This document shows, piece by piece, positions 5,956-8,956 of a DNA stretch of 8,956 bases. The stretch lies in IMG/VR virus record IMGVR_UViG_2751185961_000010. One strand, written 5' to 3'. Numbering within the stretch: the first letter of the stretch is position 1; every line of letters begins with the position of its first letter. Source of the stretch: a virus. Taxonomy: Duplodnaviria; Heunggongvirae; Uroviricota; Caudoviricetes. The translations under genes and the position numbers were made by a program. The notes beneath the pieces were generated by a model. That model was not told the origin of the DNA. It did no database searches and saw nothing but the letters and a program-made list of their open reading frames with translations.

Positions 5956-7361
5956 AGAAAAAAGCGCGGGGACAGGGTGATGATTCGTCACTGGCACTTA
6001 ACCAGATGGGGGCCAGCCAGCGTGGCAGGGTTCTTCTTGCTCATTACGGAGGGGAACTGGCAATAAACCCTGACTCTGACACAGTTCACTATTACAACGG
6101 GGTTATATGGTCCCCCGTGCAGGACAAAGAGCTACAGCGCACAATGGCGCAAATCTTCATTGACGAAGATATCTGCTATTCACAAAACGCCATTAAATCG
6201 GCAGTTGACACAATGAAGTTAAGTTTACCCGTAATGGGTAATACCGCCCGTCACCTGATTGGATTCAGCAACGGGGTATTTGATACCCGTACAGGTGATT
6301 TTCGGGAACACGATAAAGATGACTGGCTGTTAATTGCCAGTGAGTTACCGTTCACTCCACCAGCAGAGGGTGAAACGCTGGCAACACATGCGCCGAATTT
6401 CTGGAAATGGTTGCGCCGTTCGGTGGCAGAGAATGACCGCAAGGCGGATCGCGTACTGGCAGCGTTATTTATGGTGCTGGCGAACCGGTACGACTGGCAG
6501 TTATTCATTGAGGTAACTGGTCCTGGTGGAAGCGGTAAAAGCGTTATGGCGGAGATTTGTACCATGCTGGCGGGTAAGGCCAACACGGTATCGGCAAGCA
6601 TGAAGGCACTGGAGGATGCAAGGGAACGCGCGTTAGTGGTTGGCTTTTCACTGATTATTCTGCCGGATATGACCCGCTACGCGGGTGATGGAGCAGGAAT
6701 AAAGGCCATTACGGGCGGTGACAAGGTGGCAATTGACCCGAAACACAAAGCGCCATACTCAACGCGTATTCCGGCGGTAGTGCTGGCGGTTAACAACAGC
6801 GCCATGTCATTCAGTGACCGCAGCGGGGGGATCTCGCGTCGTCGTGTGATATTCAATTTTTCGGAGGTTGTACCGGAAAACGAGCGCGATCCGATGCTGC
6901 CGGAAAAAATAGAGGGTGAGCTTGCTGTAGTGATTCGTCATCTGCTTACGCGCTTTTCTGACCAGGACGAAGCCAGACGCCTGTTACATGAGCAGCAGAA
7001 ATCAGAAGAAGCCCTTGCAATAAAGCGTGAGGGGGATTCGCTGGTGGACTTCTGCGGCTATCTCATGTCGTCGGTAATGTGTGACGGCCTGTTAGTCGGT
7101 AATGCTGAGATTATTCCGTTCAGTCCGCGCCGTTATCTCTATCACGCCTATCTCTCGTATATGAGGGCGCACGGTTTCAGTAAGCCCGTAACACTGACGC
7201 GCTTCGGTGCAGATATGCCAGGCGCAATGGCGGAATATGGCAGGGAGTATATGAAAAAGAGAACGAAAGAAGGTGTGCGATCAAACGTGATACTGATGGA
7301 TGAGTCTGAGGACTGGCTGCCGTCATGTGCACCAGTGAAAAATGAGGGTGATAAAAATTAA
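5865..7361 (+). CDS. P4 alpha-like replication protein: D5_N / P4-family primase C-terminal domain with SF3 helicase P-loop NTPase and probable origin-binding C-terminal domain (498 aa from the first ATG)
   Basis: LIGFSNGVFDTRTGDFREH...LFIEVTGPGGSGKSVMAEI contains the Walker A motif GPGGSGKS in the context typical of D5/P4-alpha family NTPases. Immediately followed by the iteron array. No Shine-Dalgarno at ATG 5865, and the frame is open from 5709. Confidence 0.88.
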   Translation: MHHNERQNWRNYLDIERKNISDGLVIELPVKKKARGQGDDSSLALNQMGASQRGRVLLAHYGGELAINPDSDTVHYYNGVIWSPVQDKELQRTMAQIFIDEDICYSQNAIKSAVDTMKLSLPVMGNTARHLIGFSNGVFDTRTGDFREHDKDDWLLIASELPFTPPAEGETLATHAPNFWKWLRRSVAENDRKADRVLAALFMVLANRYDWQLFIEVTGPGGSGKSVMAEICTMLAGKANTVSASMKALEDARERALVVGFSLIILPDMTRYAGDGAGIKAITGGDKVAIDPKHKAPYSTRIPAVVLAVNNSAMSFSDRSGGISRRRVIFNFSEVVPENERDPMLPEKIEGELAVVIRHLLTRFSDQDEARRLLHEQQKSEEALAIKREGDSLVDFCGYLMSSVMCDGLLVGNAEIIPFSPRRYLYHAYLSYMRAHGFSKPVTLTRFGADMPGAMAEYGREYMKKRTKEGVRSNVILMDESEDWLPSCAPVKNEGDKN

Positions 7362-7374
7362 GTTATAGAAAAAC

Positions 7375-7604
7375 TGTTCACCGCTGTTCACCCTGTGACA
7401 AATACATTTGATATCAGTAAGTTAATGGGTGAATAGTTTTGTAAAACTATTCACCGGAGTGTTCACCCGTTCACCCTTTTGTTTGATTTTTGAACGGCGA
7501 GCGGGTGAACAGGGTGAACAGTTGGTGAACACCTTTACAAAAAGTGTTCACCCTTTAACCTCATGAATTTAAAGATGAAATAGCAAAAGGTGAACAGTTG
7601 AACA
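7375..7604. repeat. Iteron array (P4 type I iteron octamer TGTTCACC / GGTGAACA in both orientations): candidate replication origin (ori/crr-like)
   Basis: Forward TGTTCACC at 7375, 7385, 7460, 7545 and CGTTCACC at 7468. Reverse GGTGAACA at 7504, 7513, 7524, 7589 and GTTGAACA at 7597. Degenerate palindrome GGTGAATAGTTTT-GT-AAAACTATTCACC at 7428-7455. Spacings of about 9-11 bp. Confidence 0.8.
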
Positions 7605-7648
7605 GTCTTTTGGCATAAATTTTTATTTATTCCTTTGAGGAAAATTTT

Positions 7649-8098
7649 ATGACAGAGAAACACGCTAAAAAATCACACTCACCCGCCATCGATTTAACCG
7701 AACAGGGATCTGTTGTGAAGTTCGTATCGGCACGAGGCAGGCCAGTGCTTTTAGTGCCAGGAAAACATCTGCATTACTGCGATGAAAATCATATCCCGAT
7801 CCTGATTGTCTGGAAGCGAACAGTCTACGCCGATGTGACATGGCTGAATGACTCGCTGGTGTTGATACACCGCGACCTGTTTGAGCGTGAAGAATTCCGG
7901 CGAGACATTGAGGATAGGGCAGAAAAAATCTATGAGCAATATGCAGCAAACAGCAAAAGAGCCGCACGGGCAATCACTCACCATTTCATGACGCTGTATG
8001 ACCTGAAAGCAGAAGACGCAGAAAAAGCAGCGTGTGATTTATTTGATATGACAATGGATATTATCCAGGAGTACCGGAACAAGGAGCGCAGACCATGA
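7649..8098 (+). CDS. hypothetical protein (149 aa), translationally coupled to the downstream ssb
   Basis: GAGGA 7 nt upstream of the ATG, preceded by an AT-rich region with a TTGGCA -35-like hexamer. Stop overlaps the ssb start (ATGA). No family recognised. Confidence 0.75.
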   Translation: MTEKHAKKSHSPAIDLTEQGSVVKFVSARGRPVLLVPGKHLHYCDENHIPILIVWKRTVYADVTWLNDSLVLIHRDLFEREEFRRDIEDRAEKIYEQYAANSKRAARAITHHFMTLYDLKAEDAEKAACDLFDMTMDIIQEYRNKERRP

Positions 8099-8535
8099 CA
8101 GCACAGATTGCAGCTTACGGGCGGCTGGTGGACGACCCGCAGGTAAAACAGACCAGCAAGGGTACAAACATGACGCTGGCGAGAATGGCGGTATCCGTAC
8201 CGTGCCATAACGCAGATGACGGACAGGCGACTCTATGGCTTGCCGTAACAGCCTTTGGTAAACAGGCCGACCATCTGGCGAAGCACCAGAAAGGCGACCT
8301 TATCAGCGTGGCGGGTAACATGCAGATAAGCCAGTGGACCGGACAGAACGGGGAGACGCGGCAGGGGTGGCAGGTTATCGCCGACAGCGTAATCAGTGCC
8401 CGTACTGTTCGCCCTGGTGGAGGTCAGAGAAAACACACAGGCCAGCCACAAAACACAGGGGCACAGACCTCATCACGGGGACATCCACCGCAGAATAATC
8501 ACGATGACCTGTTCCCTGACGATATCCCGTTCTGA
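8095..8535 (+). CDS. ssb: Single-stranded DNA-binding protein (divergent SSB, OB-fold, acidic C-terminal tail DDIPF), 146 aa
   Basis: Pattern G.LV.DP......G...........DG..TLW..V.AFGK.A..L.K..KGD...V.G......W..Q.G..R....V, a Gly/Gln-rich linker, and the C-terminal ...DDLFPDDIPF that matches the SSB tip motif (D-D-D-I-P-F). Confidence 0.88.
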   Translation: MTAQIAAYGRLVDDPQVKQTSKGTNMTLARMAVSVPCHNADDGQATLWLAVTAFGKQADHLAKHQKGDLISVAGNMQISQWTGQNGETRQGWQVIADSVISARTVRPGGGQRKHTGQPQNTGAQTSSRGHPPQNNHDDLFPDDIPF

Positions 8536-8723
8536 GCGGTTCGAAAGCTGCTCAGTGTCTTGCAGGTGAGAGTCCTGCCGCAGTAATTGGTTAGTTTGAC
8601 TGCGTAGCGATGGCGTACATGTGGAGGGTGACCGAAGCATGGGAGCAACGCCGGATAAACGTGTCCCCCGATCCAGACAGTGGGCGCGCGCAAATACACA
8701 GCCCGTAACTGACAGTGAACTCA

Positions 8724-8956
8724 GGTAATGCTGCCAACTTACTGATTTAGTGTATGATGGTGATTTTAAGGTGCTTGCGTGGCTTCCATTTCCATCAGAT
8801 GTCCTTCCTGCTCCGCTACTGAAGGCGTGGTGCGTAACGGCAAAAGCACTGCCGGACATCAGCGCTATCTCTGCTCTCATTGCCGTAAAACATGGCAACC
8901 ACAGTTCACTTACACCGCCTCTCAGCCCGGTACGCACCAGAAAATCATTGATATGG
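8724..8956 (+). mobile_element. IS1-family insertion sequence, partial; begins with the terminal inverted repeat and continues rightward out of the window
   Basis: GGTAATGCTGCCAACTTACTGAT at 8724-8746, followed by the InsA start. This is an exact inverted copy of window positions 1-98. Confidence 0.92.
8779..8956 (+). CDS. insA: InsA (IS1), N-terminal fragment running off the window
   Basis: GTG start; translation (M)[58 protein letters not shown] matches recalled IS1 InsA with a few substitutions. Confidence 0.88.

Follow-up and report, generated by a model that had tools for sequence, protein, structure and literature searches.

The stretch of DNA analysed here (the window; 8956 bp of the Caudoviricetes record IMGVR_UViG_2751185961_000010, to which all coordinates refer unless another record is named) carries the replication genes of a genomic island. 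The pri-rep gene of this island (5533-7361, plus strand) would encode a protein of about 606 amino acids (aa) combining a superfamily 3 (SF3) helicase with an origin-binding domain, both resembling those of the alpha protein of phage P4, but it is frameshifted in this copy. An array of short repeats (iterons) starts 14 bp behind the gene and extends from 7375 to 7604. It is followed on the plus strand by an AT-rich leader (7605-7648), an open reading frame (ORF) of 149 aa (7649-8098) and the ssb gene for a single-stranded DNA-binding protein (8095-8535). Judged from the content of sites, the homology to known origins and the conserved layout, the array is very probably the cognate replication origin of the P4-alpha-type pri-rep gene in front of it. 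A previously unannotated intergenic region is hereby labelled as an origin.

Scanning both strands for the octamer TGTTCACC we found 12 sites of this type within 7375-7604, eight of them exact and four with one mismatch (in the following, F and R denote sites on the plus and minus strand, respectively, and lower case a one-mismatch site). Of the exact sites, four are on the plus strand (starts 7375, 7385, 7460 and 7545) and four on the minus strand (starts 7504, 7513, 7524 and 7589). The variant TATTCACC is present at 7428 (minus) and 7448 (plus), CGTTCACC at 7468 (plus) and TGTTCAAC at 7597 (minus). These are the same 12 sites that an earlier note on this DNA had counted as eight exact copies, two copies with one mismatch and two degenerate copies within a palindrome. 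The palindrome (7428-7455, 28 bp) described there turned out to be perfect, with 13-nt arms that are 100% complementary and 2 nt between them. It consists of the two TATTCACC sites placed head-to-head, and this R-12/13-F pair is kept in the relatives. No exact TGTTCACC was found elsewhere in the 8956-bp window, and according to our own arithmetic about 0.007 exact copies are expected by chance in 230 bp. With up to one mismatch allowed, the whole window contains 23 octamers compared to 7.2 expected, a number reached in none of 200 shuffles.

Neighbouring octamers start 8-11 bp apart, and all 12 fit a common periodicity of about 10.7 bp (resultant 0.82, equalled by 10 of 5000 random placements), in agreement with the helical-turn spacing that had been proposed. 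Among 11 divergent relatives belonging to the TGTTCACC group the octamer columns are conserved to 95% and the spacers to 74% (Mann-Whitney p=7e-15). Short ORFs of 20-45 aa run across the array on both strands. Since the octamers alone are conserved, we regard these ORFs as incidental.

In its sequence the array is an inverted pair of one module of about 100 bp, M = R R R-13-F-36-R R. The first copy, M' (7375-7475), has the layout F F-35-r-12-f-4-F f with sites starting at 7375, 7385, 7428, 7448, 7460 and 7468. After a central spacer of 28 bp (7476-7503), located at the dyad, the second copy, M (7504-7604), follows with the layout R R R-13-F-36-R r and sites starting at 7504, 7513, 7524, 7545, 7589 and 7597. 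M' and M are identical at 78 of 97 positions. Each contains an AT-rich spacer, namely 35 bp of low duplex stability in M' (7393-7427), a candidate segment for unwinding or bending, and 36 bp in M (7553-7588). A length of 35-40 bp is kept for this intramodule spacer throughout the family.

The protein encoded upstream was tied to the array by the earlier note as the initiator of a cognate origin, and its domains agree with this. Pri-Rep contains the Pfam domains D5_N, DUF5906 (the SF3 helicase) and Pox_D5, and ends in a winged-helix origin-binding domain encoded at 7032-7322 (plus strand). The latter corresponds to residues 390-486 of a 498-aa ORF and matches PDB entry 1KA8, the origin-binding domain of P4 alpha (phmmer E=7.4e-24). 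An intact Pri-Rep allele is 49% identical to residues 301-771 of P4 alpha, and BLASTP aligned no other part of alpha to it. P4 alpha itself matches Zn_Ribbon_Prim and Toprim_3, whereas domain scans detected neither a zinc ribbon nor a Toprim domain in the pieces encoded in the window or in the intact homologue of 607 aa. Thus, the designation "alpha-like" applies to the helicase and the origin-binding domain, but not to the primase domains of P4 alpha. The N-terminal part of about 170 aa (window 5533-5829; 11002-11520 in the closest E. coli island, L002) had no match in Pfam, NCBIfam or PDB. It is conserved among the Pri-Rep proteins of phage-inducible chromosomal islands (PICIs) and could not be aligned to the primase region of P4 alpha. 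A sequence IFAGSDAW in this part loosely recalls, in our own reading, the primase motif EGYATA minus its glutamate.

Relatives were collected in a scan with one genome per species, which yielded 72 loci from Enterobacterales, Orbaceae and Pasteurellaceae. Across these loci the array lies directly 3' of the initiator gene with an unchanged layout. A C-terminal domain of the window or P4 type goes along with a TGTTCACC array downstream. Other relatives, about 80% identical overall and with most differences in a single hairpin of the C-terminal domain, exhibit other octamers in the same layout and at the same position: TGTCTACC in L007, L011 and L012, TGTCCGCC in L014 and L015, TGTCCACC in L016, TGTGCACC in the Proteus loci and TCTCTACC in L053. 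Only the central bases of the octamer vary. The flanking TGT and CC are constant, except for TCT or TAT in place of TGT in L053 and in the E. coli strain CFT073. The variable protein segment reads K-x-x-T-K-x-G-x-x-x-N, with an insertion of 5 aa in several groups, and would correspond to the wing of the winged helix. Together with the conservation of the octamers, this covariation is the pattern expected of a cognate pair of initiator and iteron, and suggests that the octamers are the binding sites of the Pri-Rep C-terminal domain.

By BLAST, homologous arrays were found in 689 of 5426 complete E. coli genomes. The best match to the array was 93.7% identical, and among the matches listed none was covered by an annotated feature. 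One of the E. coli sequences carrying the same module, NZ_CP148328.1 (L079), is a circular molecule of 10,790 bp deposited as a plasmid. It represents a complete PICI-like element with int, alpA, an Icd-like gene, DUF4222, the primase gene, the array and capsid genes, and is presumably an excised, replicating island.

For one member of this family the need of the region for replication is known from the literature. The pri-rep-ori module of EcCICFT073, a PICI of E. coli, was described by Fillol-Salom et al. 2018 (PMC6092414). The island is inserted between roxA and phoQ and contains DUF4222, pri-rep (L078 12242-13996), a gap of 288 bp, a small ORF and ssb, with int and alpA upstream. Its array occupies the same slot as the one described here, i.e. 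the gap between pri-rep and the small ORF and ssb, and the order pri-rep, ori, small ORF, ssb is kept. The layout (F F, ~35-40, R, 12-13, F F F; R R (R), F, 36-40, R R) is also that of the window. EcCICFT073 Pri-Rep is 48% identical to the intact L002 allele over its full length (an alignment of 595 aa), the N-terminal domain included. The two systems differ in the iterons (TGTTCACC in the window compared to TGTCTACC, TATCTACC or TCTCTACC in CFT073), and their C-terminal binding domains are only about 31% identical. Furthermore, CFT073 lacks the isrK and C4 RNAs present in the window, and its pri-rep is not frameshifted. We mapped the primers given in the supplement of PMC6092414 to this locus. 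The pri-ori construct corresponds to L078 12198-14308 and pri-delta-ori to L078 12198-14000, and only the former, not the latter, kept a temperature-sensitive plasmid at 44°C (PMC6092414). In a preprint by Brodel et al., a payload with the CFT073 origin is reported to replicate only if the CFT073 primase is provided in trans (bioRxiv 10.1101/2022.09.30.509847).

As its position and layout are those of the CFT073 gap required for replication, the array in the window corresponds in both respects, by analogy, to an experimentally validated origin. This class of array is already known, and ours is a further case of it. A further class of origins, as summarised in PMC6092414, lies 3' of an initiator-helicase gene as well and has two iteron sets around AT-rich DNA. 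Compared by this description only, its general design is the same, but its iterons and initiator family are unrelated to those found here. The window shows the arrangement typical of PICIs: the origin is located directly 3' of pri-rep with two iteron sets around AT-rich DNA, and int and alpA, of the same orientation, are found upstream, without intervening phage genes for structure or lysis.

Three points weigh against the array serving as the origin of Pri-Rep. The protein has no recognisable primase domain, its gene is frameshifted here, and four segments of low stability compete as the candidate melting site. The frameshift is due to an 8-bp tandem duplication of CAGGTATA (5822-5829 and 5830-5837, plus strand), which is missing from four relatives, including L076, an island 94% identical across the array. 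As a consequence, pri-rep is split into the ORFs 5533-5955, of which about the first 99 codons are in frame, and 5865-7361 (both plus strand), the latter encoding 498 aa from an internal methionine. Both match consecutive parts of one PHROG profile, phrog_864. The intact homologue in L002 comprises 607 aa, and the copy in the window is about 97% identical to it over the 498-aa part; the E. coli relatives encode a "DNA primase family protein" of 584-607 aa. Thus, the 498-aa protein, which had been taken as a gene of its own, is, according to alignments to the relatives, the 3' part of a frameshifted pri-rep of about 606 aa.

Owing to the frameshift this genome may carry a dead replicon, and there is a nearly even chance that the array is a functionless relic here, part of a decayed island in which nothing fires the origin. 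In addition to the duplication in pri-rep, the truncated 5' end of the integrase gene and the inward-facing IS1 ends that cut the island on both sides point in this direction. On the other hand, none of the 12 sites is damaged and they equal those of the relatives in quality, indicating that the decay is recent, and both helicase and binding domain are retained in the 498-aa ORF. P4 alpha, or an element of the same specificity residing in the same cell, could also act in trans. Since the gene for its initiator is broken, this copy of the origin is probably silent unless it is served in trans; its firing would need a Pri-Rep or alpha of the same TGTTCACC specificity from elsewhere, or an active 498-aa product. 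The biology at this locus is ordinary, that of a decayed island with a probably silent origin. This concerns the present activity of the array and not its identity as the origin of Pri-Rep.

Direct comparison with P4 confirmed that the octamer is the type I iteron of this phage, whereas searching the full text of the literature for the octamer yielded nothing but primer sequences. The P4 record NC_001609 annotates TGTTCACC and the variants TATTCACC, TGTTCACA and TCTTCACC as "ori type 1 repeat". These repeats are annotated at ori (9310-9413) and at crr (4291-4590), which lies directly 3' of the alpha gene. For the binding of alpha to P4 DNA we rely on the P4 GenBank annotation and on a citation contained in PMC4234260. 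The ori cluster of P4 is a single module M, R R R-14-F-35-R R, with the site order and spacings of each half of the array. It is identical to M (7504-7604) at 75 of 97 positions and to the reverse complement of M' at 79 of 99 (77-80%). P4 ori and the array share TGTTCACCCTTTAAC, and TGTTCACCC(T/A)TTAAC is common to P4 ori and both modules of the window. In P4, however, this one module is located upstream of the early operon and requires crr at a distance of 4.5 kb, whereas in the window two inverted modules lie 3' of the gene. The type 2 repeats of P4 (CAYTTAAAGY, three copies) are absent; the window contains only chance-level matches to them, none near the array.

The P4 crr resembles the array in being located directly 3' of the initiator gene and in carrying the same octamers, including TATTCACC. 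Its unit points in the same direction as module M and shares 72 of 87 positions with it, a lower resemblance than that of P4 ori. While crr consists of two direct repeats of 120 bp (R-6-F-f-35-R r) and is insufficient as an origin in P4, the array is an inverted pair of ori-type modules. With two inverted modules oriented relative to each other as ori and crr are in P4, the array fits the candidate ori/crr proposed by the earlier note.

From its place directly behind the alpha-type gene, exactly where P4 has crr, one might suppose that the array is only an enhancer in cis of the crr type and that the true origin is located elsewhere in the island. P4 indeed requires two cis sites, and in Erwinia rhapontici (L017) the TGTTCACC clusters are split, an M'-type cluster (283-375) lying 2.7 kb upstream and an M-type cluster (6739-6841) 2.1 kb downstream of the alpha-like gene. 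Nevertheless, this is very unlikely. Apart from the array, no iteron cluster is present in the window, and the complete related islands L002, L076 and L077 likewise have only one, so that a single composite cluster takes the place of the two sites which in P4 are kilobases apart. Both halves of the array are closer to P4 ori than to crr. In EcCICFT073, moreover, pri and the orthologous region are enough for replication, and the origin fragment is functional when the primase is provided in trans.

As the origin of Pri-Rep, the array would unite in one compact site the ori (M') and crr (M M) that are 4.5 kb apart in P4, and we infer that it does the jobs which P4 splits between the two. The array and the initiator alone should therefore suffice for replication. 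Pri-Rep would bind the octamers, at the two R-13-F palindromes in head-to-head pairs, and would oligomerise on one face of the helix and so distort the DNA. One adjacent AT-rich segment, either one of the intramodule spacers of 35 and 36 bp or a flank, would then melt. The SF3 helicase of Pri-Rep would be loaded there, priming would follow, and a host polymerase would extend the primers; the SSB encoded downstream may help.

With respect to the melting site, duplex stability near the array is lowest in the 25-mers 7351-7375, 7615-7639, 7402-7426 and 7565-7589, of which 7615-7639 is among the least stable of the window. The latter lies within the leader 7605-7648, which had been proposed as unwinding region and promoter. 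This leader has low stability (the GC content of 7610-7649 is 20%) and contains a Shine-Dalgarno sequence GAGG in front of the ATG at 7649 of the 149-aa ORF. The intramodule spacer of 35-40 bp is AT-rich in the window, in vB_KppS-Ant, in P4 and in CFT073 (there only the first spacer), whereas the segment 3' of the array is not AT-rich in EcCICFT073. For this reason unwinding at 7605-7648 is possible, but we do not prefer it over the intramodule spacers. A sequence similar to the consensus for integration host factor (IHF), TATCAGTAAGTTA, is located in the M' spacer at 7412-7424 with one mismatch, and is perfect at the same position in L002. We rejected it as an IHF site; it is absent from CFT073 and P4, is not kept throughout the family and occurs at chance-level frequency across the window.

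The promoter role of the leader was not borne out, as a scan for promoters and terminators found no sigma-70-like promoter in 7605-7648. The only promoter-like match (7408-7437) was at chance level and was rejected. The same scan found no terminator after pri-rep, and the downstream ORFs may be served by read-through from the pri-rep transcript. Although the array thus lies between co-oriented genes without a terminator, although plasmid iteron arrays often double as control sites and although Ziegelin et al. are said to have reported in 1997 that binding of P4 alpha is modulated by Cnr in copy control, it is most improbable that the array is a transcriptional operator or a copy-control (handcuffing) array acting on read-through from pri-rep into the 149-aa ORF and ssb instead of a replication start, since deletion of the orthologous region abolished replication, there is no promoter-like site for an operator to act upon, and a control role would add to the origin function rather than replace it.

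Beyond the identification of a further PICI origin, the modest new points are a specificity identical to that of P4 together with the homology of the modules to P4 ori, the inverted two-module design, and the covariation of iteron and hairpin. While earlier work treated P4-like satellites and PICIs as independent (PMC6092414), one PICI subfamily would share its replication specificity with P4, both in the iteron and in the origin modules. Read along the initiator gene, the modules are arranged as M' (ori), 4.5 kb and M M (crr) in P4, as M', gene and M in Erwinia L017, and as a fused M'M in the window and the E. coli PICIs, the relative orientation being identical in all of them. The arrangement in L017 is intermediate between the split ori and crr of P4 and the fused PICI origin.

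A wider interpretation can be built on this, which, taken with all its parts together, we consider possible but rather doubtful. The compact PICI origin might be P4 ori and crr joined, with a single two-module machine existing in split and fused arrangements that can be converted into each other, and the long-puzzling need of P4 for crr might reflect a need for two facing modules. P4-like satellites and these PICIs might also activate or titrate each other's origins in a shared cell, as they have the same octamer and binding domains about 50% identical, and the hairpin of the binding domain might specify the three central bases of the iteron as a simple code that can be swapped. PICI primase/origin pairs are already in use as conditional replicons for DNA delivery, as described in bioRxiv 10.1101/2022.09.30.509847. 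For such applications the covariation of iterons and hairpins offers primase/origin pairs that are probably orthogonal, and the specificity shared with P4 is a warning of possible cross-activation.

The remaining gene content allowed us to assign the island. A tyrosine integrase gene (98-1149, plus strand; identified by Pfam) has its 5' end cut by IS1, the genes of the relatives being 1215-1233 bp long. It is followed by a regulator gene of the alpA family (1792-1995, plus strand; Phage_AlpA, E=2.4e-20); two Rha-domain proteins and DUF4222 are also encoded in the window. Downstream of the origin, the 149-aa ORF had no match in Pfam, NCBIfam or PHROG, and in the relatives its slot is taken by a shorter hypothetical gene (about 81-85 aa). 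The assignment of ssb is based on Pfam SSB (E=6e-17) and TIGR00621. Just 3' of ssb, Rfam detected the group II intron domains D1-D4 (RF02003, 8560-8713, plus strand, 67 bits), probably a fragment of an intron as the match abuts the IS1 end at 8725. Terminal sequences of IS1 face inward at both sides, at 1-97 (minus strand; the reverse complement of 8725-8800) and at 8725-8956 (plus strand). The island segment of 8.6 kb in between (98-8724) is thus bracketed by inverted IS1 termini with the same end inward on both sides, an arrangement reminiscent of a composite transposon or of decay mediated by IS1. The island's right part has been replaced by the group II intron fragment and IS1. The relatives continue instead with ProQ/FinO and PerC genes, or with capsid genes and terS typical of PICIs and capsid-forming PICIs.

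The earlier note had placed the element in the P4 lineage. The gene set of P4-like satellites comprises int, psu, delta, sid, alpA, epsilon as well as alpha (PMC8628076). In common with P4 the window has int, alpA, the isrK-like and C4/CI immunity RNAs, the helicase and origin-binding domain, and the origin modules. However, no Pfam match to psu, delta or sid was obtained with the ORFs of the window, which is cut by IS1, and these genes are also absent from the annotated relatives L002 and L076. The ORFs scanned likewise gave no match to epsilon (Derepression, PF25738), a family that the epsilon protein of P4 itself matches. The N-terminus of Pri-Rep and the gene order are those of the E. coli PICIs. 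By its gene content the element is a decayed PICI-type island with a P4-related early region and replication module, and not a P4-like satellite.

The P4-related early region includes an isrK-like (Hfq-binding) RNA at 4391-4467 (Rfam, 52 bits) and a C4/CI-type antisense RNA at 4492-4579 (74 bits), both on the plus strand. This tandem corresponds to the immunity region of P4, where it is located in the early leader (8420-8692). In the window it lies inside the ORF 4286-4804, annotated by Pfam as "Ash". The C4 match of P4 overlaps the old "cI" ORF, which also matches Phage_ASH. As ORFs of this type overlap the C4 RNA both in the window and in P4, the Ash protein family may largely reflect the conserved RNA and not a protein. 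In L002 we detected two copies of the C4 RNA (9533-9620 and 9993-10080) among Icd-like pseudogene fragments, suggesting that the immunity region was duplicated in this island.

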